Shown here: positions 2,205-54,658 of the stretch, one piece after another
How positions within the stretch are numbered: position 1 is the stretch's first letter
Layout of the letters: each line of letters opens with the position of its first letter
Assembly: GCA_017416185.1 (NCBI GenBank)
Contig: JAFQDF010000037.1
Coordinates: 1-64,000, forward strand
DNA from: Clostridia bacterium
Lineage (GTDB): Bacteria > Bacillota > Clostridia > Oscillospirales > CAG-272
Direction of reading: 5' to 3'
DNA length: 64,000 nt
Program-made: the position numbers and the translations under genes
The notes under the pieces: model-generated
Database searches by the model: none
What the model was told of the DNA's origin: nothing
Seen by the model: the letters and a program-made list of their open reading frames with translations, nothing else

Positions 2205-3231
2205 AGGGCGTCTGAGACTCAGCCTTTTGATATCGGTGTTTGTATTCTGCATCATAGTTGTTGCTGTGGTCGTTGCCTTTGGTTTGGTAAACCTGTTGGC
2301 TTACACCGGCATAATAATTTCTATAAATGAAGAAACAGACCCCGTTACGCTGTTTATATTTATGGGTATCGTCAGCCTGATAGTAGGTTTAGGTGCATCT
2401 CTTGCGGCAGGTAAAATTCCCATAAAACCGATGTACCGTCTGATAGATCAGATCGACAGGCTGGCATCGGGAGATTTTAAGGTCAGATTAAAGCCGAGTA
2501 ATGCCCTCAGTTCTCATCCTGCAGTGGAGAAGGCAGTGGACAGCTTTAACCGTATGGCTGAACAGCTTGAAAATACACAAATGCTGCGTCAGGATTTTAT
2601 CAACAACTTCTCCCACGAGTTCAAAACACCTATCGTTTCTATAGCAGGCTTCGCAAAGCTTTTAAAAAAGGGAAATCTGTCTGATGAACAGAAAAACGAA
2701 TATCTCGATATAATAGAAAGCGAATCGCTGAGACTTTCTGCTATGGCGACAAACGTACTCAACCTTACCAAGGTGGAAAATCAGACTATACTTACCGATA
2801 TCACCGAATATAACCTTTCCGAACAGCTGCGCAACTCTATTCTGTTGCTTGAATCAAAATGGGCTGACAGAGACATCGAATTTGATCTTGGCTTTGACGA
2901 GCATTATATAAAAGCCAACAAGGAGCTGCTAAGGGAGGTATGGATAAATCTGCTTGACAACGCCATAAAGCATACCGACGGTTATATCGCAGTAAGGGTC
3001 ACCGAAGATGATAAGCTGACTATAGAGGTGGAAAACACGGGAAGCTCTATCCCGAAGGATAAGCAAACGCGCATATTTGATAAGTTTTATCAGTCGGACG
3101 AATCCCATTCCTCCGAGGGTAACGGCATAGGCCTTGCCCTTGCAAAGCGTATAGTTGAGCTGCACAAGGGAAGCATCGGCGTTAAAAGTGAAGAAAATCG
3201 GGTTACCTTCAAAGTCAAGTTGCCGAAGTAG
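2188..3231 (+). CDS. Sensor histidine kinase (two TM helices, HAMP, HisKA, HATPase_c)
   Basis: Two N-terminal TM segments, H-box FSHEFKTPI, and a C-terminal ATPase G-box (GNGIGLALAKRIVELHKG). It overlaps the response-regulator gene by 17 nt. Confidence 0.9.
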   Translation: MNKKHKGRLRLSLLISVFVFCIIVVAVVVAFGLVNLLAYTGIIISINEETDPVTLFIFMGIVSLIVGLGASLAAGKIPIKPMYRLIDQIDRLASGDFKVRLKPSNALSSHPAVEKAVDSFNRMAEQLENTQMLRQDFINNFSHEFKTPIVSIAGFAKLLKKGNLSDEQKNEYLDIIESESLRLSAMATNVLNLTKVENQTILTDITEYNLSEQLRNSILLLESKWADRDIEFDLGFDEHYIKANKELLREVWINLLDNAIKHTDGYIAVRVTEDDKLTIEVENTGSSIPKDKQTRIFDKFYQSDESHSSEGNGIGLALAKRIVELHKGSIGVKSEENRVTFKVKLPK

Positions 3232-9260: not shown

Positions 9261-10466
9261 ATGATAGAGATAAAAGGAAATTTTAATACCGCCCTCTGCT
9301 TTACAGACAGTGTGGAGGGCTTGGCATACGAGCAGATCAAAACGGTCTGCGATATAGAGGCGTTTGCCGATAATAAGATAAGAATAATGCCCGACGTTCA
9401 CGCAGGTGTGGGCTGTACCATAGGTACGACGATGACTCTTACCGACAAGGTAGTTCCCAATATGGTAGGCGTGGATATCGGCTGCGGTATGTATACCGTA
9501 GAGCTCGGAAAGATCGATATTGACCTTGAAGCATTTGATACCGCCGTTCATACTATTCCCTGCGGCAAGGCTGTATGGGAGGGCAGAAAGGAGCGCTTTG
9601 ACCTTGAGGAGCTGCGCTGCTTCCGTGCGCTTAAGGATTCAAAAAGACTGGAAAGAAGTATCGGAACCCTTGGAGGCGGAAACCACTTTATAGAGATAGA
9701 TAAGGACGAAGATGGCAACAAGTACCTCGTTATCCATTCCGGAAGCCGTAACCTCGGCACTCAGGTGGCGGAGTACTATCAGTCTATTGCCGTTGATCTT
9801 AATATGGGCAAGGAGGAGTACTTTGACCGCCGTGAGGAGATAATCCGCACCTACAAAGCTGAGGGCAGACGCTCTGAAATTCAGGATGTCTTGAAGGCTA
9901 TGGCAAAGGAGTGGAAGGATAAGGAGCCTACACTTCCCCGCGGACTCTGCTATCTCTACGGCAGATTTATGGAGGATTATATCCACGATATAGACATCTG
10001 TCAGCGCTTTGCTACCCGCAACCGTGAGAAGATGGCAGAGATAATTCTTGAGCTGACTGGAATAGCGGCGGCACATTCCTTCCATACGATACACAATTAT
10101 ATCGACGTTGAGGCTATGATACTCCGTAAGGGCTCTGTGTCTGCAAAGGCAGGCGAGAAGCTCCTTATCCCCATCAATATGCGTGACGGCAGCCTTATCT
10201 GTATCGGCAAGGGAAACTCTGACTGGAATTTTTCCGCACCCCACGGTGCAGGCAGACTTATGAGCCGTACCGATGCCTTTGAGAAGCTGACTATGGCAGA
10301 GTATGAGGCGCAGATGTCAGGTATCTACTCCACCTGTATCAACACCTTTACTCTTGACGAGTCACCTATGGCATACAAGTCTATGGAGCATATAGTATCC
10401 AACATCACTCCCACCGCCGATATAGTTACACATATAAAGCCTATATACAATTTCAAGGCAAATTAA
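9261..10466 (+). CDS. rtcB: RtcB-family RNA 3'-phosphate/5'-OH ligase (short ~400-aa form)
   Basis: Motifs MPDVHAGVGCTIG, GGGNHFIEI and NFSAPHGAGR (the GMP-histidine motif). An alternative GTG start at 9246 would overlap the SPFH gene by 8 nt. Confidence 0.8.
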   Translation: MIEIKGNFNTALCFTDSVEGLAYEQIKTVCDIEAFADNKIRIMPDVHAGVGCTIGTTMTLTDKVVPNMVGVDIGCGMYTVELGKIDIDLEAFDTAVHTIPCGKAVWEGRKERFDLEELRCFRALKDSKRLERSIGTLGGGNHFIEIDKDEDGNKYLVIHSGSRNLGTQVAEYYQSIAVDLNMGKEEYFDRREEIIRTYKAEGRRSEIQDVLKAMAKEWKDKEPTLPRGLCYLYGRFMEDYIHDIDICQRFATRNREKMAEIILELTGIAAAHSFHTIHNYIDVEAMILRKGSVSAKAGEKLLIPINMRDGSLICIGKGNSDWNFSAPHGAGRLMSRTDAFEKLTMAEYEAQMSGIYSTCINTFTLDESPMAYKSMEHIVSNITPTADIVTHIKPIYNFKAN

Positions 10467-10488
10467 GGGGCAAGTTGCCCCACCCATA

Positions 10489-10524
10489 CTGCGCCCATTT
10501 GTGCAGTAATACAAATCACACGCC
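10489..10524. repeat. Copy A of a ~36-bp intergenic hairpin motif (CTGCGCC-ATTTGT-GCAGTAAT-ACAAAT-CACACGCC)
   Basis: It shares the TTTG-loop(CAGT)-CAAATCACACG core with copies at 27440-27475 and 53983-54020. Confidence 0.5.
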
Positions 10525-10545
10525 ACAAGGCAATTATCTATATAT

Positions 10546-10585
10546 AAAAAGCTTCGGATCAAACCGAAGCTTCTTTTGTTTTTTT
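10546..10585 (+). terminator. Intrinsic terminator for rtcB (AAGCTTCGG...CCGAAGCTT plus CTTTTGTTTTTTT). The stem overlaps the 3' end of the convergent MATE gene.
   Basis: 9-bp stem with a long T-run. Confidence 0.7.
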
Positions 10586-11908
10586 CATTACCGTAATATA
10601 CATTATAAATCCCATTACAAGGGTCAGGGTGTCGGCTATGGGCTGGGCGCTCATAAGCCCCGTCTCGCCGCCAAAATTCTTAAGTATTATAAGTAAGGGT
10701 ATAAGCAGAACAAGCTGTCTTACCATAGAGAGCAGAAGTGACTGGAACCATCTGCCCATAGACTGGAATATTGCGCCGAAGAGGTTAGTGAAGCACATAC
10801 CCGGCACGCATAAGAACCATATACGTATAAAGTCTATTCCCTTCTCAACAGTCTGTGTCTCGGAGGTAAATATGTGAAGTATAGGCTCGGCAAATATCTC
10901 TGCCAACGCTATACAGAGTCCTGCGTAGATGGCAAGTATTATAAAGGAAAGACTGCTTACAGACTTGAATCTCTTAAGGTTTCCCGCACCGTAGCAGTAA
11001 CCTAACAGAGGCATTATACCCTGTGTGAGACCAACGGTTATCTGTATTCCCACAGAGCCTATCTTCTGTACCGTTCCCTGTGCGGCGATAGATATATCAC
11101 CGTAGGATGACATACTGTTAGTAAGAAGGATGTTGGCTACAGTACCCAGGATTATAACAGCAGCGGCGGGAATTCCTACAAGGATGACCGAGCTTGCAAT
11201 ATTCTTATCAAATCTGAATTTCAGAGGATTAAGAACTATTACGCTGTCCTTTGTTCTGAGGGCTACCGTAAGAAGATAACCGAAGGATATAAGGTTGGAT
11301 ATAAAGGTAGCTATTCCCGCGCCGCCTATTCCCATACCTAACACGGAAACGAAGAGTCCGTCAAGAACTATATTCAACACTCCGCCGAGCGCAACGCCTA
11401 TACTTGCCTGCTTGGTATTTCCTTCAGAACGGATAAGATGCGCCAGCACCATAGAGCCTACCGTGGGTATTCCGCCTATCGTAAAGGTCCAGAAAAGATA
11501 GCTTTGGGTGTGTGCAAGAGTAGACTCGGTAACTGCTCCTGCCATACGGAAAATGGGTAGGTTAAATACGTTTAATATAAGTATCAAAAGCCCCACGGCA
11601 ATAAAGGAACCGTAAAAGCCGAAGGTAGAGGCAAGACGGGCATTGTCCGGCTTCTTTTCACCCAGAGAACGGGAAATAAAGCTGTTGGCGCCGATACCGA
11701 AAAGGTTTGCCACCATAGTAAGGCACATAAATATGGGGAAGCTTACCGTCAAGGCTGCAATCTGTGAGGGATCGTTGGTATGTCCCACAAAGAAGGCATC
11801 GGCAAGGTTATATATAAGTACCACAAGCTGACTCAGAACCGTGGGTATGGCTAACTTTGCCACTGCCCTCGGTACCGTCATATTTTCAAAAACGTCTTTA
11901 TTGTTCAT
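10559..11908 (-). CDS. MATE-family efflux transporter
   Basis: 449 aa with 12 predicted TM helices and the MATE N-terminus (VPRAVAKLAIPTVLSQLVVLIYNLADAFFVGH). Confidence 0.85.
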   Translation of the reverse strand: MNNKDVFENMTVPRAVAKLAIPTVLSQLVVLIYNLADAFFVGHTNDPSQIAALTVSFPIFMCLTMVANLFGIGANSFISRSLGEKKPDNARLASTFGFYGSFIAVGLLILILNVFNLPIFRMAGAVTESTLAHTQSYLFWTFTIGGIPTVGSMVLAHLIRSEGNTKQASIGVALGGVLNIVLDGLFVSVLGMGIGGAGIATFISNLISFGYLLTVALRTKDSVIVLNPLKFRFDKNIASSVILVGIPAAAVIILGTVANILLTNSMSSYGDISIAAQGTVQKIGSVGIQITVGLTQGIMPLLGYCYGAGNLKRFKSVSSLSFIILAIYAGLCIALAEIFAEPILHIFTSETQTVEKGIDFIRIWFLCVPGMCFTNLFGAIFQSMGRWFQSLLLSMVRQLVLLIPLLIILKNFGGETGLMSAQPIADTLTLVMGFIMYITVMKKTKEASV

Positions 11909-12957: not shown

Positions 12958-14121
12958 TTACAGTTTCTTTTTTACGAAAATAAATGCAATAACTGCTATT
13001 GCAGCTACGCCTATTGCAATACCTACGCCGATATCTCCGGTCTGAGCTGCATTATCTCCCGTTATTCCCCCGGTAACAGCTTTCTTGGTTGTACTTGAGG
13101 TCTTTGAGGCTGTCTTTTGAGTGGTAAGCTTGCTCCCCGTTTGGGTGGTAACAGGGTGTGTCCCTGATTCTGTTTCTGTAGATTTTTCGCTCTCCTTTGT
13201 GTCGATAGTAGTATCAACAGCTCCTGTTGCTATGGTCGTCTCATCCGTTTCAACAGGTTCGGTTACTTCTCCGTTTGCACCAAAGCTGAGCGTTATACCG
13301 TATGCCTTAAGGCATACGCCTGATGACAAATATCCTTTGAGCCCGTCTGCAAGAATATATCCGCAGGTTGCAAAACGCTGGAAGGTGGCAACTTCACCTG
13401 CTTCGGGATCAATAAACCTATCCATATATATTGCCATAGCTCTGTGCTTGGCGCCGCCTGAACAAAGCTCTTCAGTAGTCACACTAATGTCACCGAAGGA
13501 CAGTTCATCTGTATCCTGACATATAAATTCCCAAGGGATAAAAGCCTCAAAGCACCATCCATCATTCGTTACCTGCCCTTTAACCTTAACGTCTGATGTA
13601 ATGTCGCCGCTTCGATTATGGGCACGGTACATACGGCAGATATTATTCTCAAATATACCTACCGAATACCAGGTATTATAATCGGTGTTTGACATATACC
13701 CCTCCTCAAGAAATCTTCCGAGGGGATCTATAACAAAGGTAAAGATATCTCCGTTATATCCGTAAACCACCTCATTTTTAATATTGAAATCGTTCTGTAC
13801 GTTGTCTATATCGTCCTCGCCGGTAGACAGCACAAAACTATTGTCAAGGATGTCAGCGGCATAGTATATACCGTCCTTATCGTATGCATAATATAGATAA
13901 AATGACTGAAGTATCTCGTTGCAGTTACCGAAGGTAGCCATAAGATCCTTGTGGGCATATACGCCTTCACTCCAACCCTCATCCGCTGCTATACTTCCAT
14001 CTATTAAAGGCGTCGACATAGGAACATCGATATTACCGACGTCTGCCTGCATGTTCGGGTTTGCATAGACTGTTGTTGAAAGACAGACAAGTAAAAGTAA
14101 TATACAAATCAATCTTCTCAT
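12958..14121 (-). CDS. Paralog A of a tandem secreted/anchored protein family, the divergent member. It has a signal peptide, an aromatic-rich beta-sandwich-like domain, a Ser/Thr-rich linker and a C-terminal TM anchor ending KKKL.
   Basis: Signal peptide MRRLICILLLLVCLSTTVYA. It shares motifs with paralogs B-D (YYAADILD, GYNGDIFTFVIDPLG, GDITSDVKVKG, GWCFEAFIPWEFI). Its start overlaps the stop of paralog B (ATGA). Confidence 0.7.
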   Translation of the reverse strand: MRRLICILLLLVCLSTTVYANPNMQADVGNIDVPMSTPLIDGSIAADEGWSEGVYAHKDLMATFGNCNEILQSFYLYYAYDKDGIYYAADILDNSFVLSTGEDDIDNVQNDFNIKNEVVYGYNGDIFTFVIDPLGRFLEEGYMSNTDYNTWYSVGIFENNICRMYRAHNRSGDITSDVKVKGQVTNDGWCFEAFIPWEFICQDTDELSFGDISVTTEELCSGGAKHRAMAIYMDRFIDPEAGEVATFQRFATCGYILADGLKGYLSSGVCLKAYGITLSFGANGEVTEPVETDETTIATGAVDTTIDTKESEKSTETESGTHPVTTQTGSKLTTQKTASKTSSTTKKAVTGGITGDNAAQTGDIGVGIAIGVAAIAVIAFIFVKKKL

Positions 14122-15356
14122 TTTCTTTTCTTTGCTCCCTTATATACGATTCCCGATACCGCAAGCGATCCTATAGCTGCAGCGATTCCTATATCAAAGG
14201 TCTGTGCCGCATTGCCACCCGCAGCGGTACCTGTAGTAGCCTTCTTGGTGGTAGCCTTAGCTGTAGCCTTACTTGTAACCTTAACTGTAACCTTCTGCGT
14301 AACCTTGTTACCGGAAGCATCAGTTACTGCATTACCCTTGTCATCGGTAACCTCAACAAAAGCTGTTTCGGTTTCCTCAGTGACAGTATCACTGCCGCTG
14401 TCAGTAGCAGGAGCATCGGTAGTAGCTGTACTATCTGATGCTGTAGTGTCTTCACCTACCTGATCCTTTGCCTCAAGATAAAGGTTAAGCCCAAGAGATT
14501 TGACGTTTGTACCTGTACCCATATGACCGGGAGTTCCGTCCGCCATAGTTGAGGGAACGGTAACAAAGCATCCCCAGGTTGCAACCTCACCTGCCTCGGG
14601 ATCGTTGAAGCGGTCGTGATACATAGCACCTGCTCTGACCAGTGATTTATCGGAAAGAAGCTCTGCTTTGTCTATGACACAGTCACCGTATGAAATATTC
14701 TCTATATCTTCAATAATCATATCCCAAGGTATACCTGCTTCAAGGCACCAGCCTGTAGCGGTCTTGTGTCCTGCCACCTTTACCTTGTCAGTAATATCGC
14801 CTGCATTTACCTTTTCGCGGTACATCCTGGCTACATCTCCTTCAAAAAGACCTACCATATACCAAGGAGAGTTATCTTCATTACCGGTAAACCCATTATT
14901 CGCCAATATTCCTGCGGGATCTATAAGCATACCGAAAACGTCGCCGTTATATCCGAACGCAGAACCGTCATCCTTTATGTCAATATCATCGGTACCTGAA
15001 GAATACACAAATTCGTTTGTACCTGCGGGAATAACCTCGCCGGTTATCTCATGTACTGACTCAAGACCGTCGGTAAGATCGGCGGCATAATAGAAATATT
15101 CGTCGTCATAAGCAAATTTAACCGTACCCTTAAACGTAAGAGGATTTACGTGCCAGAAGAAACCGAGGGTATCGTAATCCATACTTGCTGCAACAGACCA
15201 GCCTTCCGTTTCGGTTATATTGCCGTCAACGGTAGGAGAAACCTTCGGCGTATCTATGGGACCGTTCTCAATAACGCCCTCGGGCCCTGCCATAATCTGT
15301 ACCGACATAATTGATATCATCAATAATGCCAATAATACTGTAATGATCTTTTTCAT
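14118..15356 (-). CDS. Paralog B of the tandem surface-protein family
   Basis: Signal peptide MKKIITVLLALLMISIMSVQIMA, with a GGAG RBS; the ORF-track start is further upstream. The conserved domain is followed by the C-terminal tail TGTAAGGNAAQTFDIGIAAAIGSLAVSGIVYKGAKKRK. Confidence 0.75.
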   Translation of the reverse strand: MKKIITVLLALLMISIMSVQIMAGPEGVIENGPIDTPKVSPTVDGNITETEGWSVAASMDYDTLGFFWHVNPLTFKGTVKFAYDDEYFYYAADLTDGLESVHEITGEVIPAGTNEFVYSSGTDDIDIKDDGSAFGYNGDVFGMLIDPAGILANNGFTGNEDNSPWYMVGLFEGDVARMYREKVNAGDITDKVKVAGHKTATGWCLEAGIPWDMIIEDIENISYGDCVIDKAELLSDKSLVRAGAMYHDRFNDPEAGEVATWGCFVTVPSTMADGTPGHMGTGTNVKSLGLNLYLEAKDQVGEDTTASDSTATTDAPATDSGSDTVTEETETAFVEVTDDKGNAVTDASGNKVTQKVTVKVTSKATAKATTKKATTGTAAGGNAAQTFDIGIAAAIGSLAVSGIVYKGAKKRK

Positions 15357-15387
15357 AGCATTACTCCTAAAATTATTTTCTATAGAT

Positions 15388-15416
15388 ATTATAACATCTG
15401 TTCTTAAATAAATCAA
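15388..15416 (-). promoter_or_regulatory. Sigma-A promoter for paralog B (TTGATT, 17-nt spacer, TGnTATAAT extended -10)
   Basis: Read on the minus strand as TTGATTTATTTAAGAACAGATGTTATAAT. Confidence 0.5.
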
Positions 15417-15449
15417 GCCTTTCGACCACAGTCGAAAGGCTCCATTAAC

Positions 15450-15477
15450 TTTGCACTTTGCATTTTGCACTTTGCAC
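15450..15477. repeat. Short tandem repeat (TTTGCAC)n-like, TTGCACTTTGCATTTTGCACTTTGCACT, next to a palindromic hairpin at 15415-15440
   Basis: Read directly from the sequence. Confidence 0.6.
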
Positions 15478-15487
15478 TACATAAAAC

Positions 15488-15507
15488 AAAGCACTCCGAG
15501 GAGTGCT
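15488..15507 (-). terminator. Intrinsic terminator for paralog C (AAGCACTCC-GAGGAGTGCTT plus a T-run on the minus strand)
   Basis: 9-bp stem, with TTTGTTTTAT following on the minus strand. Confidence 0.7.
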
Positions 15508-15519
15508 TGTTTCATGTAA

Positions 15520-16767
15520 TTACTTTCTCTTCTTTGTAGCTACAAAGCCGATACCGGAGGTTGCAAGAGCACCGAGTGCTACTGCTATGCCAATATCAAA
15601 TGTCTGAGCAGCGTTACCGCCTGTAGTGGTACCTGTGGTAGCTTTCTTAGTAGTGGCCTTAGCTGTAGCTTTAGTTGTAGCCTTACTTGTAACCTTAACT
15701 GTAACCTTCTGGGTAACCTTGTTACCGGAAGCGTCAGTTACTACGTTACCCTTGTCATCAGTAACCTCAACAAATGCTGTCTCGGTTTCTGCAGAAGTAT
15801 TGTCATCACCACCGGGAGTTGCTGTAGTTGTATCATCAGGTGTTGCGGTGGTATCATCAGCCTCAGGACCCTTGAGAGTGTTGGAAATGTTAAGGGTAAT
15901 ACCGCAGGACTGTACAACGTCACCCTTACCCATATGACCGGCAGTACCGTCAAGCTGAGTGGTGGGAACGGTTATATAACGTCCCCAAGTAGCAACCTCG
16001 CCTGCCTCAGGATCGTCAAAACGGTCTTGATACATACCTGCACATTTGTACTGTGCACCATCAGCTATAAGCTCTTCCTTTGTAAGTACAACGTCACCGT
16101 AAGAGATATCCTCGATATCCTTGATGATTATTTCCCAAGGAATCATCGCTTCAAATTCCCAACCGTCAGAGGTCTTCTTGCCGGCTACCTTAACCTGATC
16201 AGTAATATCACCTACACTTACCTTCTGTCTGTACATCTTAGCCTGATCGCCTTCAAAAAGACCTACAAGATACCAAGGAGTATAGTCATTGTTGAAGCCG
16301 GCTGAAAGTAAACCACCCAAAGGATCAAGAAGAAGACCAAATACGTCTCCGTCATAACCGTAATGGGATGTAGGATCTGCTGAATCAACATCGATCCAGT
16401 CTTCGCCCGTAGAATAAACGAAATAGTTGGTGTCAATAACCTCTTCACCGGTGAGCTCATTTACTGCATGGAGATTCTCTTTAATCTTACCTGCAAAGTA
16501 GAAGCCTGTTTCATCTACCGCAAAAAGTATGTTTCCGTCAGAGGTAAGGGGATTCTGTTTCCAGAAATATCCACATGTCTCTGCGTTCATTAGAGCAGCA
16601 GTAGACCAACCCTCATTATTGGTAACAGATCCGTCAACAGTAGGAGTACCGGTAGGAACGGTAATGGGGGGATTTTCAACAACACCGTGGGGACCTGCTG
16701 TAACTGTCATTGCAAAACTCATTGCAAGAACAAGCACACATGCAATGATTGCACTAATTTTTCTCAT
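15520..16767 (-). CDS. Paralog C of the tandem surface-protein family
   Basis: Signal peptide MRKISAIIACVLVLAMSFAMTVTA with an AGGAGG RBS. C-terminal tail GGNAAQTFDIGIAVALGALATSGIGFVATKKRK. Confidence 0.75.
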   Translation of the reverse strand: MRKISAIIACVLVLAMSFAMTVTAGPHGVVENPPITVPTGTPTVDGSVTNNEGWSTAALMNAETCGYFWKQNPLTSDGNILFAVDETGFYFAGKIKENLHAVNELTGEEVIDTNYFVYSTGEDWIDVDSADPTSHYGYDGDVFGLLLDPLGGLLSAGFNNDYTPWYLVGLFEGDQAKMYRQKVSVGDITDQVKVAGKKTSDGWEFEAMIPWEIIIKDIEDISYGDVVLTKEELIADGAQYKCAGMYQDRFDDPEAGEVATWGRYITVPTTQLDGTAGHMGKGDVVQSCGITLNISNTLKGPEADDTTATPDDTTTATPGGDDNTSAETETAFVEVTDDKGNVVTDASGNKVTQKVTVKVTSKATTKATAKATTKKATTGTTTGGNAAQTFDIGIAVALGALATSGIGFVATKKRK

Positions 16768-16798
16768 AATATATTCCTCCTGAATTGTATATATGGTT

Positions 16799-16827
16799 AT
16801 TATAACATATGATTTTAAATTAATCAA
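16799..16827 (-). promoter_or_regulatory. Sigma-A promoter for paralog C (TTGATT, 17-nt spacer, TGnTATAAT)
   Basis: Minus strand TTGATTAATTTAAAATCATATGTTATAAT, nearly the same architecture as the paralog B promoter. Confidence 0.5.
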
Positions 16828-16917
16828 TAGTAATTTTTACATATTAGAAAAAATACTTTAAGAAAGTAGATCAATCTTTTTCTTTAATCAATAGCTTGTA
16901 TACATTTTTCGCATAAA

Positions 16918-16941
16918 AAGATGACCCTTTCGGGTCATCTT
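16918..16941 (-). terminator. Intrinsic terminator for paralog D (AAGATGACCC-TTTCGG-GTCATCTT)
   Basis: 9-bp stem, with CTTTTTATG following on the minus strand. Confidence 0.65.
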
Positions 16942-16949
16942 AATTTATA

Positions 16950-18212
16950 TTACTTTCTCTTCTTTGTAGCTACAAAGCCGATACCGGAGGTAGCAAGTGC
17001 ACCGAGTGCTATTGCAATACCAATATCAAATGTCTGAGCAGCGTTACCGCCTGTAGTGGTACCTGTAGTAGCCTTCTTGGTGGTAGCCTTAGCTGTAGCT
17101 TTACTTGTAGCCTTACTTGTAACCTTAACTGTAACCTTCTGTGTAACCTTGTTACCGGAAGCATCAGTTACTGCATTACCCTTGTCATCGGTAACCTCAA
17201 CAAATGCTGTCTCGGTTTCTGCAGAGGTGTTGTCATCACCGTCGGGAGTTGCTGTGGTTGTATCTTGGCCGCCCTCGTCACCGTTTGGAGCTGTAGTATC
17301 CTGGCCGCCCTCGGGAGCCTGGAGATAGAGGTTGATACCGCAGGAAAGAACGTTGTCACCGGAGGAACCATTACCGGACATACCAGTAGCAAGAGTGGTA
17401 GGACAGGTTACGAAACGGCCCCAAGTAGATCTCTCACCCGCCTCGGGATCGTCAAAACGGTCATGGTACATAGCGCCGAGTCTGATATACGCGTTTTCCT
17501 TAAGGAGGTCAGCCTTGTCTATAACACATTCGCCGAAAGTGATATCCTCAACGTCCTTGATGATGATATCCCACGGAATAGCTGCCTCGAAGTGCCAACC
17601 GTCTGTGGTCTTATGACCTGCAACCTTGACCTGATCGGTAATTTCGCCTTCGTTGATCTTGTTTCTGTACATCTTAGCAACGTCACCCTCAAAAAGACCT
17701 ATGAGATACCAGGGAGTGTAGTCCTGGTTACCGTTATATCCTGCGTCAAGCATTACGGACAGGGGGTCAATGATGATACCGAAAATATCACCGTCAAAAC
17801 CATAGTTATCAGCAGGATTATCAGGGTTAACGTCGATCCAGTCCTCACCCTCAGAATAAAGGAACTGGTTATAGCCTGCGGGGATAAGTTCGCCTGTGAT
17901 CTCGTGGTGTGTTTCAAGACCGTCAACGATCTTACCACAGTAGTAGAGATTGTCGTTATCCCAAGCAAATCTTACGTTACCGTCCATAGTAAGGGGATTA
18001 ACGTGCCAGTAGAAGCCGAGAGTATCATAGTTCATAAGAGCAGAAACAGACCAACCCTCGTTTTCATTGATAGTACCGTCAATGGTGGGAGACATAGCAG
18101 GTACGTTGATGGGGGGATTTTCAATAATTCCCTCAGCGCTTGCCATAACGTTTACCGCCATTGAAGACACGAGAATAAGTAATGTTGCAACGATTGCAAT
18201 GAATTTCTTCAT
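16950..18212 (-). CDS. Paralog D of the tandem surface-protein family
   Basis: Signal peptide MKKFIAIVATLLILVSSMAVNVMASA with an AGGAGG RBS. Its C-terminal tail is identical in type to paralog C. Confidence 0.75.
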   Translation of the reverse strand: MKKFIAIVATLLILVSSMAVNVMASAEGIIENPPINVPAMSPTIDGTINENEGWSVSALMNYDTLGFYWHVNPLTMDGNVRFAWDNDNLYYCGKIVDGLETHHEITGELIPAGYNQFLYSEGEDWIDVNPDNPADNYGFDGDIFGIIIDPLSVMLDAGYNGNQDYTPWYLIGLFEGDVAKMYRNKINEGEITDQVKVAGHKTTDGWHFEAAIPWDIIIKDVEDITFGECVIDKADLLKENAYIRLGAMYHDRFDDPEAGERSTWGRFVTCPTTLATGMSGNGSSGDNVLSCGINLYLQAPEGGQDTTAPNGDEGGQDTTTATPDGDDNTSAETETAFVEVTDDKGNAVTDASGNKVTQKVTVKVTSKATSKATAKATTKKATTGTTTGGNAAQTFDIGIAIALGALATSGIGFVATKKRK

Positions 18213-26963: not shown

Positions 26964-27359
26964 TTACCATACGAAGGCGAGAACTTCGCCGCCTACGTTT
27001 TCTTTACGTGCGTTCTTGTCGGTCATAATACCCTTGGAAGTGGAGATGATCGCAATTCCAAGACCGTTCATAACCTTGGGAATATCCTCACAGTTGGAGT
27101 AAACGCGGAGACCGGGCTTGGATACACGCTTGATGCCTGTAATAGCCTTCTTCTTGTTTACATACTTGAGTGTGATTCTGATGATACCCTGCTTGCCATC
27201 CTCGACAACCTGGTATCCCTTGATGTAACCCTCGTTTGTAAGAATGTCTGCGATAGACTTCTTCATATTGGATGCGGGAACATCAACTGTTTCGTGTTTT
27301 GCGTTGCTTGCGTTTCTGATACGTGTAAGCATATCCGCAATTACGTCTGACATTTGCAT
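26964..27359 (-). CDS. rpsH: 30S ribosomal protein S8
   Basis: ...[14 protein letters not shown]... Confidence 0.95.
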
Positions 27360-27532
27360 TATTCTAATCCTCCTATTTGCAGTTGCCGGTTATCACCGGC
27401 TTGGTACCGGGGGTTAACCGGGCCCGGCCCGGAGCGAAACTGCGCACGTTTGCTCAGTGCGAACAAATCACACGGAACATCGAAGTCAGCTGCTCGACCT
27501 TTTGCCCTGTTCCTACCGATTGAGCGTGGAGA
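27360..27532 (-). promoter_or_regulatory. GC-rich, structured 173-nt intra-operon spacer between rpsZ and rpsH. It contains copy C of the ACAAATCACACG hairpin motif (27440-27475).
   Basis: This spacer is unusually long and GC-rich for an rpsZ-rpsH junction. It carries multiple inverted repeats (GCCGGTTATCACCGGC, CCGGGGGTTAACCGGGCCCGG). Confidence 0.4.
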
Positions 27533-27718
27533 TTACCACGATGCTTTACGAACTCCGGGAATTTCGCCCTTGTATGCAAGCTCTCTGAAGCAGATACGGC
27601 AGATGCCGTACTTGCGGAGATAAGCATGGGGACGACCGCAGATCTTACATCTGTTGTATTCTCTTGTAGAGAACTTCTGTGCCTTCTGCTGCTTTAATAC
27701 CATAGCCTTCTTAGCCAT
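27533..27718 (-). CDS. rpsZ: 30S ribosomal protein S14 type Z (zinc-binding, 61 aa)
   Basis: [12 protein letters not shown]...[23 protein letters not shown], with four Cys. Confidence 0.95.
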
Positions 27719-49696: not shown

Positions 49697-49780
49697 ATGA
49701 ATTGACAACTGCGTTGTCATGAATTGATGCGTTGCATCATGAATTGACACACCGTGTCATTAATTGTATCCTTCGGATAC
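49697..49780 (+). repeat. Array of four ~21-bp units, each ATGAATTG followed by a different short perfect hairpin
   Basis: Hairpin units TGACAAC-TGC-GTTGTCA, TGATGC-GTT-GCATCA, TGACAC-ACC-GTGTCA and GTATCC-TTC-GGATAC, each preceded by (C)ATGAATTG or TTAATTG. Confidence 0.7.
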
Positions 49781-50198: not shown

Positions 50199-50307
50199 AT
50201 TTTCGCCATAGCGAAAATCCACCTTAATGTGCTTTGGCACAATTCATGACGCTTGCCGTCAATTCATGGCATAGCCAATTCATGAAAGCCAACGGCTTTC
50301 AATTCAT
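50199..50307 (+). repeat. A 9-bp-stem hairpin (GATTTTCGC-CATA-GCGAAAATC), then an array of four hairpin units each followed by CAATTCATG. This is the inverted counterpart of the upstream array.
   Basis: Units GTGC-TTTG-GCAC, GACG-CTTGC-CGTC, GGC-ATA-GCC and AAAGCC-AAC-GGCTTT, each followed by (C)AATTCAT(G). Confidence 0.7.
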
Positions 50308-52403: not shown

Positions 52404-53963
52404 ATGGACAACAATAACAACAAGCGCTCTCCCCTGGATGAAATCAAACGTATAACTCAGGAAGCATCCGGTGATAAGCCGTCACAAAGAACCTTCCCGC
52501 ACACAAGCGAACAACAGGCCAAGGCAACCCAACAGCCCGTACACACGGCAAAATCCTCAGAAAATGATTTTGATTTTGACATTCCGGGCTTTAAACGTAA
52601 TAATCCTAACGATGGACTATCGCGTGCTGATAAGGTACGTATAGCAAGACAGAGCGCTATGCGCACAAGAGAAGAAAATCAGCCTACAAAGGTGATCGAC
52701 GTATCGGAAATGACACCCGAGCAGCGTTCAGAGCTGGATAGACAAAAAGAAGAAGCTCACCGTCTTGTGCAGGAGAATGCTAAAAAGAACAAGCACAGAT
52801 ATGCAACAAGAGAAACGAAGATAGTCTCTCCTCAGCCCGAGCCTAAAAAGAATAAAAAGATGTCTACTGAATCCGAACGTGGCAGAAAATTCGAGGAAGC
52901 CGTAGGTAGAGGAGTTCTCTCAAATACGGTTAAGGCTGTTATATATATCGTATCAGTACTCGTAGTATCAGGCTGTATTGCTCTGTTCGCCATACTTGTC
53001 GGAAATGACTGTTTTGCATTTGTCAAGAGTGAAACAGAGGTTACTATTACGATACAGGACGGAGCTACCCTTTCTGATATCGCAAAAGAGCTTAAGAAGA
53101 ATGACATCATTAAATTCCCAAATATGTTCAAACTCTATATAACCCTGCGCAACAAGGACAGTAACAACTATGTTGCGGGTAAGCACACCGTAAACGGAAC
53201 AATGGGATATGACACTCTTATTGCTCAATTTAAGCCCACCCTCGGACGTGAGGAAATAACCATAACCATCGTAGAGGGTTCAACAACACAGGAGATCATT
53301 GACCTCTTTGTTGCCAATGGAATAGGTACTCAGGAGGGATTTGAGGAAACCATAAAGAATTACGAATTTGATTTCTGGTTTCTTGATGAGCTTGACAGTA
53401 TAGATACGTCAAACCGTATCTACCGCCTGGACGGTTATCTTTTCCCTGATACCTATAATTTCTTCACAAATGCCACAGAGGCAGACGCTCTATATAAATT
53501 GCTTGCAAATTTTGAAGCAAAGTTTGATACAGAAAACAAAGAAAGAATAAAAGAGCTTGGCATGACTGTAGATGATATAGTCATTATGGCATCCATTATT
53601 CAGAAGGAAGCGATGTACGTGTCCGACTACCCCCTTGTATCCTCTGTATTCCATAACCGAATAGAAAAGGGTATGAAGCTGGAAAGCAACGCTACCGTTC
53701 AGTACACAATGCCCCGTGAAGAGGTCGAGCTTAAACTGACCTACGAGCAGATCAACACCTATAACAACGCCTACAACACTTATCTCTACGAAGGACTTCC
53801 TACAGGTCCTATCTGTAACGCTTCTCTGAATGCTATCAACTGGGCAATGTTTCCCAATGATACAGATTATATGTACTTCGTTTCCGATTCTGAAGGATAC
53901 AACCATTATGCCGTTACCTTTGCAGAGCATGATAAGAACGTAAAGACATACCAGGGTGAATAG
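52404..53963 (+). CDS. mltG: Endolytic murein transglycosylase MltG (YceG-like), with a ~150-aa disordered N-terminal region and a TM anchor
   Basis: YceG-like C-terminus (SVFHNRIEKGMKLESNATVQYTM ... LPTGPICNASL). Confidence 0.75.
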   Translation: MDNNNNKRSPLDEIKRITQEASGDKPSQRTFPHTSEQQAKATQQPVHTAKSSENDFDFDIPGFKRNNPNDGLSRADKVRIARQSAMRTREENQPTKVIDVSEMTPEQRSELDRQKEEAHRLVQENAKKNKHRYATRETKIVSPQPEPKKNKKMSTESERGRKFEEAVGRGVLSNTVKAVIYIVSVLVVSGCIALFAILVGNDCFAFVKSETEVTITIQDGATLSDIAKELKKNDIIKFPNMFKLYITLRNKDSNNYVAGKHTVNGTMGYDTLIAQFKPTLGREEITITIVEGSTTQEIIDLFVANGIGTQEGFEETIKNYEFDFWFLDELDSIDTSNRIYRLDGYLFPDTYNFFTNATEADALYKLLANFEAKFDTENKERIKELGMTVDDIVIMASIIQKEAMYVSDYPLVSSVFHNRIEKGMKLESNATVQYTMPREEVELKLTYEQINTYNNAYNTYLYEGLPTGPICNASLNAINWAMFPNDTDYMYFVSDSEGYNHYAVTFAEHDKNVKTYQGE

Positions 53964-53982
53964 GCAGAGAGTCCGCACCAAA

Positions 53983-54020
53983 ATTGTGATCGTTTGTACA
54001 GTCATACAAATCACACGCCC
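53983..54020. repeat. Copy B of the ACAAATCACACG hairpin motif (GTGATCG-TTTGTA-CAGTCA-TACAAA-TCACACGCCC)
   Basis: Shared core with 10489-10524 and 27440-27475. Confidence 0.5.
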
Positions 54021-54040
54021 GACGCAGTCTCCTATACAAT

Positions 54041-54069
54041 AAAAAAGCACTCGTTACGAGTGCTTTTTT
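54041..54069. terminator. Bidirectional terminator (AAAAAAGCACTCG-TTA-CGAGTGCTTTTTT)
   Basis: 10-bp stem with flanking A- and T-runs. Confidence 0.8.
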
Positions 54070-54658
54070 ATTTTCTGTATTCTGCTTTTACCTCTTCTAT
54101 CCATGCCCCTTCTTCATTATAGTATAAGGTAATATACTGCGTACGGCTCATATCTGAGCCTATATCACGGCGAAAGCTGCCGTCGTTTTTCATAATATTA
54201 TAATCGACTGAATATGTAATAGAGAAGGTATCGTCATCAATGCGCTCATCATATAGATAAACGACTTCCTTCTGATAAACACGCTGCGGTGTAAAGGACA
54301 CATAATTTCCCAGCTCTTTCTTATACATATCGTTCAAGGTTGCAGCATCCCCCTGCTCTATTGCAAGAAAATAAAGCCGAAAGAATATAGCCCCTATTTC
54401 CGTACAGCTTGTATCCTGATCTATATACCATTGCTGACCTGTGCTATCCGTATAATGTAAGGTTCTATCCTTAGAAAGATACTTCGGATCATTTAAATAA
54501 TCTTCTTCCTCCGTCGGAACATAAAATTCGTAATCAAGCTTGATTTCATTATTGCTTTTTATTATTCGTGCAAGAACAAAATATGTTATAAGCAAAAGCG
54601 CCAAAGCCATTGCTATTATAACAAAGAGTTTAATAATTTTTCTTTTTTTGGCAGACAT
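54068..54658 (-). CDS. Hypothetical membrane-anchored protein
   Basis: The start at MSAKKRK has an AAAGGA RBS; the ORF-track start is TTG. N-terminal TM helix. No motif recognised. Confidence 0.5.
   Translation of the reverse strand: MSAKKRKIIKLFVIIAMALALLLITYFVLARIIKSNNEIKLDYEFYVPTEEEDYLNDPKYLSKDRTLHYTDSTGQQWYIDQDTSCTEIGAIFFRLYFLAIEQGDAATLNDMYKKELGNYVSFTPQRVYQKEVVYLYDERIDDDTFSITYSVDYNIMKNDGSFRRDIGSDMSRTQYITLYYNEEGAWIEEVKAEYRK

Follow-up and report, generated by a model that had tools for sequence, protein, structure and literature searches.

We studied a short interspersed element that is present three times in a 64-kb stretch of DNA from a Clostridia bacterium (GCA_017416185.1, contig JAFQDF010000037.1, positions 1 to 64,000), here called the window. 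On the plus strand, rtcB ends at position 10466 and is followed by the first copy, c1, and then by a bidirectional terminator (10549-10572 plus a T tail) common to rtcB and a convergent MATE gene. Likewise, mltG (plus strand) ends at 53963 and is followed by the third copy, c3, and by a terminator (54038-54072) common to mltG and a convergent gene for a 202-aa protein. The second copy, c2, lies in the 173-nt spacer (27360-27532) between rpsZ (27533-27718) and rpsH (26964-27359), the genes for S14 and S8 in the spc ribosomal operon, both of which are on the minus strand. Throughout, "minus sense" means a reading on the minus strand of the window.

A first-pass annotation had described a 36-bp hairpin motif at 10489-10524, 27440-27475 and 53983-54020. 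The three sequences are as described, and the 12-mer ACAAATCACACG occurs three times in the window with one mismatch allowed, each time exactly and on the plus strand, against 0.32 occurrences expected; none of 100 shuffled sequences reached three. The CTGCGC said to be common to the copies reads TTGTGA in c3. A repeat search of the window paired c1 with c3 (10478-10524 and 53973-54019, 79% identity), and an nhmmer profile hidden Markov model together with a covariance model, trained on all family members and run over the window with filters off, aligned c1, c2 and c3 over about 85-94 positions, so that a 36-bp hairpin does not describe the unit. The covariance model scores were 91.5 bits for c2 (27412-27505), 83.4 bits for c1 (10461-10553) and 59 bits for c3 (53956-54047), with E-values of the copies between 1e-13 and 1e-22; the window holds exactly three copies, the runner-up match having 12 bits and an E-value of 0.35. 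At the dispersed sites the unit measures about 79 nt, and its spc version about 67 nt. The first-pass annotation would have given up the recurrence had a wider search returned no further copies and had the matches not aligned past the 12-mer; both further copies and a long alignment were clearly obtained.

Filled and empty sites

RtcB homologues at 84-90% identity led to five contigs (L022, L023, L024, L026 and L027) in which the gap between rtcB and the MATE gene is 12 nt, against 92 nt in the window, and in which the host terminator is conserved and begins right after the stop codon. Because five empty sites of 12 nt carry the same terminator, c1 is a 79-nt insertion (10467-10545, minus strand) that separates the rtcB stop codon from the terminator's A-run. 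The bidirectional host terminator itself (10546-10587), identified by the terminator scan and present in orthologous form at the five empty sites, is ancestral and lies outside the element, and its 3' half encodes the C-terminus of the MATE protein. The final eight MATE codons (KKTKEASV, 10559-10590) fall within the terminator stem and its T/A-runs, an arrangement that is kept in relatives.

At the mltG site, c3 (53964-54040, minus strand; 12-mer at 54006-54017) lies between the stop codon and the bidirectional host terminator (54038-54075 in the terminator scan), which is outside the element and has orthologous counterparts in contigs L034 and L035. The site is empty in L034, which belongs to the metagenome-assembled genome (MAG) RGIG1815, and is filled in L035 by a copy with the same arms and another centre. 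Copy c3 is partly degenerate, with its GC hairpin and one arm decayed: where the L035 copy has the intact hairpin GCGGCGAGTCGCCGC, the GCAGAGAGTCCGC of c3 is a decayed version of it. The rtcB and mltG contexts confirm the earlier description of c1 and c3 as lying directly before intrinsic terminators at gene ends.

The third site is inside the ribosomal operon, where c2 (27420-27503, minus strand) lies in the rpsZ-rpsH spacer and is sense to the operon. Since the spc operon is on the minus strand, the 12-mer as written (27463-27474) is antisense, and the operon transcript reads CGUGUGAUUUGU. Among contigs encoding identical S14 or S8 proteins, the spacer is 106-108 nt and free of the element in L010, L011, L014, L041 (RGIG1815), L043-L045 and L047-L049, and 171-179 nt and element-bearing in L007 (the window), L008, L009, L012 and L015; the outgroup L006 has an unrelated version of 145 nt. 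The first-pass annotation had proposed this comparison of spacer lengths, and it confirms the 173-nt spacer as an expanded form. What it expands is not the "normally tiny" junction then supposed: the baseline of the clade is a structured leader of 106-108 nt, to which the element adds about 67 nt. The flanks in L044 and L045 are nearly identical to those of the window and the element is absent. In L008, L009 and L015 the element is followed by a hairpin similar to the P3 hairpin of these two leaders (AGGCAATACTGCCTGCCC), so that the operon has gained about 67 nt net, namely the arms and the core, at the P3 stem tip; the GC hairpin of c2 (27418-27432) is probably derived from the resident P3 hairpin.

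All three window copies are insertions, gained and lost at precise positions. The earlier proposal of a dispersed element tolerated in a ribosomal operon agrees with the empty sites found for all three copies and with the copies at unrelated loci elsewhere; the protein-binding site proposed alongside it received no positive support. Filled and empty spacers are interleaved on a tree built from about 2.4 kb of ribosomal-protein genes. Divergence among the spc copies is 11-32% over their full length and 12-22% within the core, whereas the third codon positions of the ribosomal-protein genes on either side diverge by 5-14%, so that there is no sign of strong selection on the whole element. The core is still recognisable across the diverged spc copies, and the L009 copy is a mosaic, with a 5' part like that of L012 and a hairpin like that of L008. 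A single old insertion held under strong constraint fits this pattern less well than recurrent gain and loss or recombination between alleles.

The spacer that received c2 is itself a structured rpsH leader (27360-27532, minus strand), with helices that RNAalifold predicts to be conserved in relatives: long and short spacers give the same outer helices, with compensatory changes. A CUCC placed right after the rpsZ stop codon (27528-27531) pairs with the GGAG of the rpsH Shine-Dalgarno sequence (AGGAGG, 27369-27374), and this pairing is invariant; a long-range helix AAUCGG/CCGAU or AAUCGG/CCGGU covaries, with U-A, C-G, U.G and A-U variants; a helix GGAGC/GCU-AA-CC has an invariant AA bulge. The leader also has the variable apical stem P3, which is the insertion site, and a covarying hairpin, P4. 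These helices are conserved in 15 or more contigs, including an outgroup that is 25% diverged. A search of Rfam gave no match to the leader. Like the autoregulatory leaders of the ribosomal proteins S4, L20 and S15 of Firmicutes, it presents a conserved structure that would occlude the ribosome-binding site of the regulated gene, and on this modelled structure it may be an undescribed candidate S8 autoregulatory site in Clostridia. In helix 21 of 16S rRNA, the S8 site has two base pairs between an unpaired A and a 2-nt bulge containing an A; the internal loop and the 2-nt AA bulge of the leader are like it in topology only. The leader differs from the S8 site of the E. coli spc operon in that the latter is at rplE, not rpsH. 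For Clostridia, the ribosomal leaders surveyed by Eckert & Weinberg (2020; PMC7247131) do not include one for S8. Since c2 is sense to the operon and sits at the apex of P3, it is necessarily co-transcribed with the ribosomal operon, and it occupies the one position of the leader where extra RNA should be harmless.

Modular anatomy and strand signals

An alignment of all copies read in the minus sense, including those from the further contigs L002 (two copies, L002a and L002b), L003 and L005, gives one order of parts: (A)TATAG, a 5' arm (..ACGUUGUGGCGUGUGAU), a centre, a 3' arm (GAGCGCAGU(U/A)UGG), a GC hairpin and, often, a run of six or seven T residues. On the plus strand of c1 the GC hairpin GGGGCAAGTTGCCCC occupies 10467-10481, an arm ACCCATACTGCGCCC 10482-10496, the central hairpin 10497-10516, the 12-mer 10511-10522, and the second arm, ending CTATATAT, 10523-10545. 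The conserved portion amounts to about 55 nt of non-palindromic arms plus core. Three types of centre are found: type A (UUGUAUUACUGCACAAAC) in c1, c3, L003 and L002a, type B (UUGUUCGCACUGAGCAAAC) in c2, the other spc copies and L005, and type C, an AU-rich 26-mer, in L002b and L035. Types A and B are hairpins carrying UUUGU...ACUG...CAAA. The parts occur in different combinations: c3 and the L035 copy have the same site and a related hairpin with different centres (A and C), and L002b and L035 share type C. The terminal GC hairpin comes in five unrelated versions that all pair perfectly, with 90% of cells paired and double changes at five of the six pairs. The most conserved part of the element is the 12-mer: six copies from three genomes have it without any difference, whereas the arms drift. 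The c1 arm CAAGGCAATTA matches the end of rtcB, CAAGGCAAATTA, at 11 of 12 positions; covariation in the arm helix accounts for this better, and we take the match as a coincidence.

Each dispersed copy begins 0-5 nt after the T-run of the host terminator of the co-directional upstream gene; in the other orientation, the dispersed copies lie between a stop codon and the A-run of a terminator. Placement and orientation relative to the host terminator are alike at all six dispersed loci. A-runs flank both sides because each hairpin has its own. With the element ends set by comparison with the empty sites, terminal inverted repeats are absent, as the ends of c1, GGGGCAAGTTGCCCC... and ...TCTATATAT (...CCTATA in other copies), are not complementary. 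The L003 copy is flanked by a near-perfect direct repeat of 13-14 nt, TATAA(T)CAAAAAAG (L003 1122-1135 and 1203-1216), which may reflect the mode of insertion or just two A-runs that happen to coincide; such a target-duplication-like feature is found only there, and c1, c3, L005 and the spc copy have no consistent duplication.

Several other identities were considered for the element and set aside. A small open reading frame (ORF) or leader peptide (MWRVIC.../MFRVICSH) was rejected, as a 1-nt indel separates types A and B and the stop codons vary (8 to 33 codons); in the MFRVICSH frame, read by eye, every substitution among the five spc copies is non-synonymous. An integron attC site was likewise rejected, there being no RYYYAAC ... 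GTTRRRY cores at the ends of any copy, and neither a dif/Xer site nor group II intron domains could be recognised.

The strand on which the element may act is suggested first by its terminator. The terminator scan called the GC hairpin on the minus-sense strand only, in c1 (with a weak tail), L003, L002a, L002b and L035. The last four have the hairpin followed by T6-7, c1 (GGGGCAACTTGCCCC then TTAATTT) and L005 have a weak tail, c3 has lost the feature and the spc copy lacks it. Moreover, the minus sense is co-directional with the upstream gene at seven of seven loci, including L002, which has no upstream gene on the plus strand, and the spc operon. In the latter, the five copies keep a hairpin GUUC-n-GUGYGA-UKUGU-UCRCAC-n-GARC, in which one pair varies between U.G, C-G and U-A and which reads GUUC-c-GUGUGA-UUUGU-UCGCAC-u-GAGC in c2 (27452-27478, minus strand). 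Hand-drawn minus-sense structures of all 12 copies have 78-79% of cells paired, compared with at most 48% in slid controls, although these counts lean towards the helices because they were drawn from the same sequences. Minus-sense G.U exceeds A.C by 16:4 in the arm helix and by 19:2 in the core hairpin, and the arm helix has two compensatory double changes between c1 and L003. From sequence features, the terminator, the orientation at seven of seven loci and the spc copy, the minus sense is favoured as the putative functional strand.

These same features bear on the main rival to our preferred reading of a modular interspersed element, namely a mobile family of trans-acting small-RNA genes, each dispersed copy being its own minus-strand transcription unit. 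Such a unit would comprise a -10-like TATAG start, a structured body presenting the G/U-rich GGCGUGUGAU(UUGU) as a seed or protein site, and an intrinsic terminator; the interchangeable centres would stand for different targets, and the spc copy would be the same RNA made from the operon, its level coupled to ribosome synthesis. The hairpin and T-run at the element end (never on the other strand), the constant co-directionality, the G.U excess and the compensatory changes all speak for it, as do a core that is identical across divergent genomes while the arms drift, and a low copy number, which suits a small-RNA family. No convincing promoter supports it: a sigma-70 search of both strands returned only a 9/12 match in c1, with the -35 box inside the host terminator, and no minus-strand match in L003, L035 or L005. 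The small RNA or riboregulator offered as one option by the first-pass annotation gains from the minus-strand terminator. Against it, c3 has neither the hairpin nor one of the arms, and no target could be proposed. We regard this explanation as rather unlikely; it differs from the preferred one mainly in whether the RNA has a function in trans.

Folding also tells against a small RNA made from the minus strand, and here the signals conflict. A competing helix, ACUGCAC/GCGCAGU, has the opposite strand signal, with A.C at 14 and G.U at 5 in the minus sense. Single-sequence folds of the dispersed copies beat shuffled sequences on the plus strand only, where z is -2.3, -3.2 and -2.2 (minus strand, -0.6 to -1.5), and when types are mixed the consensus fold is weak in either sense (-6.4 and -2.0 kcal/mol). 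No single consensus structure emerged for the element: the arm helix, GCGU/GCGC, the UUUGU/ACAAA hairpin, GUGYGA/UCRCAC and ACUGCAC/GCGCAGU include mutually exclusive helices, each partly supported and with conflicting strand signals. An H-type pseudoknot (ACUGC/GCAGU with UUUGU/ACAAA) was not conserved in L005 or L012, and a K-turn or C/D-box-like motif (GUGAUGA in L035, CUGA in c2) was rejected, the boxes not being conserved and the helices being fully Watson-Crick.

The plus-strand folds raise a second alternative, a cis-acting element in the 3' untranslated regions (UTRs) of the rtcB, mltG, rpe and other mRNAs, whose ACUGCGC/GUGCAGU hairpin would affect 3'-end stability or termination and of which the spc copy would be a non-functional antisense version. 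Five of the seven dispersed copies lie 0-17 nt past a co-directional stop codon and directly before a terminator, so plus-strand transcription is certain there, and the ACUGCGC/GUGCAGU helix keeps G.U or U.G pairs in c1, L003 and c3 and shows one compensatory change from C-G to U-A. Yet the helix is not kept in L005 or L012, the L002 copies have no upstream plus-strand gene, the host genes are functionally unrelated, and the same genes in relatives lack the element; the T-run of the GC hairpin is on the other strand, and the wobble pairs of the spc-copy hairpin work only on the operon (minus) strand. A role in 3' UTRs seems to us decidedly improbable. A plus-strand ATCACA-18-TATAAT in L003 was dismissed as a promoter, since it would fire straight into the terminator.

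An explanation without any RNA role, in which a regulator or recombinase binds the element as double-stranded DNA (for instance at a CRP/FNR-like TGTGA-N-TCACA palindrome), takes its appeal from the TGTGA-N5-TC(G/A)CA of type B copies, the TGTGAT...ATCACA of c3 and the 12-mer being the part most conserved. The half-sites are, however, spaced by 5, 13 or 19 nt, an inconsistency for which the CRP-like palindrome was rejected, and the type A copies c1 and L003 have no second half-site. The positions are gene 3' ends and the interior of an operon, not promoters, and such a site would account neither for the covarying hairpin nor for the roughly 70 nt of homology in the flanks. We consider a DNA site of this kind very unlikely.

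Distribution of the family

About 370 kb of related sequence was examined, and whole collections were scanned on both strands with an exact 20-base pattern at four gap lengths (one genome per species in GTDB, about 600 Gb). The real matches in GTDB were on two contigs of RGIG1815 (L002 and L003) and one of Oscillospiraceae SIG691 (L005). The L003 copy is 3' of an rpe-like gene, the two L002 copies are in tandem upstream of an ArsR-type operon, and the L005 copy is between convergent genes. Just upstream of the tandem copies, L002 2094-2173 (plus strand) and 2238-2304 (minus strand) match the Gut-1 RNA motif (RF01706) near the threshold, with 45.5 and 34.7 bits (gathering 50); since these matches stand beside the tandem copies, the L002 intergenic region is a cluster of small structured-RNA-like units.

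Three further matches, L001, L004 and L016 (two in GTDB, alphaproteobacterial and Deinococcales, and one in a metagenome), consist of the core only and are rejected by the covariance model. The core-only GTDB matches are about as many as the chance estimate (roughly 4), which is what a chance recurrence of the 12-mer would look like. For the copies themselves, chance recurrence in AT-rich intergenic DNA was rejected by the 100 shuffles, the alignment of about 85 nt, the covariance-model E-values and the precision of the insertions relative to the empty sites, and its probability is negligible.

Viral contigs gave no pattern match in two scans, and plasmids and phages no blastn match to the element. 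Rfam returned no match at gathering level in the window and, for the element alone against Rfam 15 at E-values up to 10, only noise (ctRNA_pGA1 12.5 bits, L17 leader 15.3, sR15 13.5 and fstAT 12.2). A 9.3-kb extension of the sequence of this genome contains no further copy. As far as searched, the element is confined to a narrow clade of uncultured rumen and gut Clostridia (Oscillospirales-like MAGs).

Other repeats were seen in the same sequences. Three to four tandem paralogues of about 1.4 kb (387-420 aa, no Pfam match), with blocks 66-93% identical, lie on the minus strand at about 13700-18000 of the window and contain an internal repeat of 12-nt period, GTAGCCTTAGCT. Inverted repeats of CATGAATTG units at 49715-49767 and 50239-50271 enclose a gene for a 118-aa PF05635 protein ("23S rRNA intervening sequence protein"); this could be a small mobile or regulated cassette. 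In L034 (14380-14654, RGIG1815) 275 nt separate the PP-binding and NERD genes, which are about 54 nt apart in the window; the L034 gap holds about ten copies of GCGATAT / ATATCGC in both orientations, which look like an iteron or binding-site array.

A candidate element family and its relation to known systems

With roughly even confidence, we propose that the copies belong to a new, low-copy family of small, non-coding, modular interspersed elements that insert beside hairpin/T-run junctions, carry or adopt a terminator-type hairpin, recombine and are co-transcribed with their hosts. The element would spread as a non-autonomous unit targeting hairpin or T-run junctions, and recombination among the copies would reshuffle its centres and hairpins. 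The invariant core CGUGUGAU(UUGU) could be the recognition site of a protein or RNA that mobilises or binds the element. Possibly, the extra RNA is tolerated because it lands outside important helices, at the tip of a leader stem or in the gap between stop codon and terminator, and if the host benefits at all, for instance from a back-up terminator or 3'-end structure, this would be secondary.

Several observations weigh against this proposal. The copy number looks low: about 74 kb of this genome hold three copies, about 95 kb from five relatives hold one dispersed copy, and the whole RGIG1815 MAG has only two exact-pattern matches, a count below that of typical proliferating repeats. Terminal inverted repeats, a consistent target-site duplication and a candidate transposase are all lacking: the annotated genes in loci of this genome and its relatives, about 95 kb in all, include neither a RAYT nor a TnpA (Y1 transposase). 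Moreover, the 12-mer is identical between genomes whose MltG proteins are only 71% identical, and a unidirectional terminator is kept at five of seven dispersed copies; the identical 12-mer and the kept terminator point to selection on an expressed RNA rather than to purely selfish DNA.

Should the proposal be right, the poorly studied uncultured Oscillospirales of rumen and gut would contribute a new family of small modular elements with an unusually clean choice of target, the junction beside terminator-type hairpins. The filled and empty alleles at three loci make the insertion process, and its effect on termination and mRNA 3' ends, accessible to experiment, and the leader variants with and without the 67-nt insertion at the stem tip are ready-made structure-function controls. 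By itself, the element reveals no new regulatory mechanism.

In target choice, but in little else, the element recalls the class C (IIC) group II introns. These insert just downstream of the stem-loops of intrinsic terminators, in the orientation of the terminated transcript, and begin with GUGYG at the 5' end, of which the GUGUG in the core is reminiscent. Unlike them, the element is about 80 nt long, has no recognisable domain V or VI and no reverse-transcriptase ORF, and its GUGUG lies away from the junction. By analogy, the element might be an RNA-mobilised cassette, a terminated transcript copied into DNA and integrated 3' of terminator or hairpin T-runs, comparable to a short interspersed nuclear element (SINE), seeding small-RNA loci and even entering a ribosomal-protein leader. 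That copies end in a hairpin and T-run, start after a host T-run and have no convincing promoter, inverted termini or consistent target duplications would fit such a scenario. The sequence analysed showed no reverse transcriptase, and we give this reading a slim chance.

The REP and BIME repeats associated with RAYT (of the IS200/IS605-like Y1 type) and the PATE elements are similar in that they are short, strand-specific hairpin repeats at 3' ends between convergent genes, without inverted termini or target duplication. REP sequences are, however, single imperfect palindromes of 20-40 nt with a GTAG head, usually present in many copies and in inverted clusters, whereas the element consists of non-palindromic arms plus a core, and the window copies have one orientation and are never paired. 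The REP-like element that the first-pass annotation had offered as one option is in this strict sense not supported, since the element is modular, is no simple palindrome and has no GTAG head. The element fails the defining tests for a miniature inverted-repeat transposable element (which has inverted termini), for REP, for attC and for the Rfam families.

The remaining systems are closer. The ERIC/IRU and Correia (NEMIS) elements of Proteobacteria, of about 70-150 nt, lie in transcribed intergenic regions and operons, occur with or without internal segments, vary in presence between strains and form RNA hairpins. ERIC and Correia are long imperfect palindromes, Correia having inverted termini and a TA duplication, and neither is tied to terminator T-runs; the element has no such palindrome, inverted termini or TA duplication. 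BOX elements of Streptococcus pneumoniae (boxA-boxB(n)-boxC) are small, non-coding and modular, with a variable middle, are co-transcribed, fold as RNA and have no transposase of their own. The element is like BOX in being small and intergenic, with modular outer parts around a variable middle, in its co-transcription and in having no transposase of its own. It differs in the absence of sequence similarity, in the terminator-type hairpin at one end and in always lying beside a host terminator or hairpin; BOX exceeds 100 copies per genome and its boxA and boxC are partly complementary, like terminal inverted repeats, whereas the element is low-copy and has no inverted termini. Nevertheless, it is non-coding and shorter than 200 nt, has three copies here and five at other loci, has empty sites and lies in transcribed intergenic DNA, as do repeats of the BOX/ERIC kind, and by analogy it appears to work most like BOX, ERIC or Correia elements.

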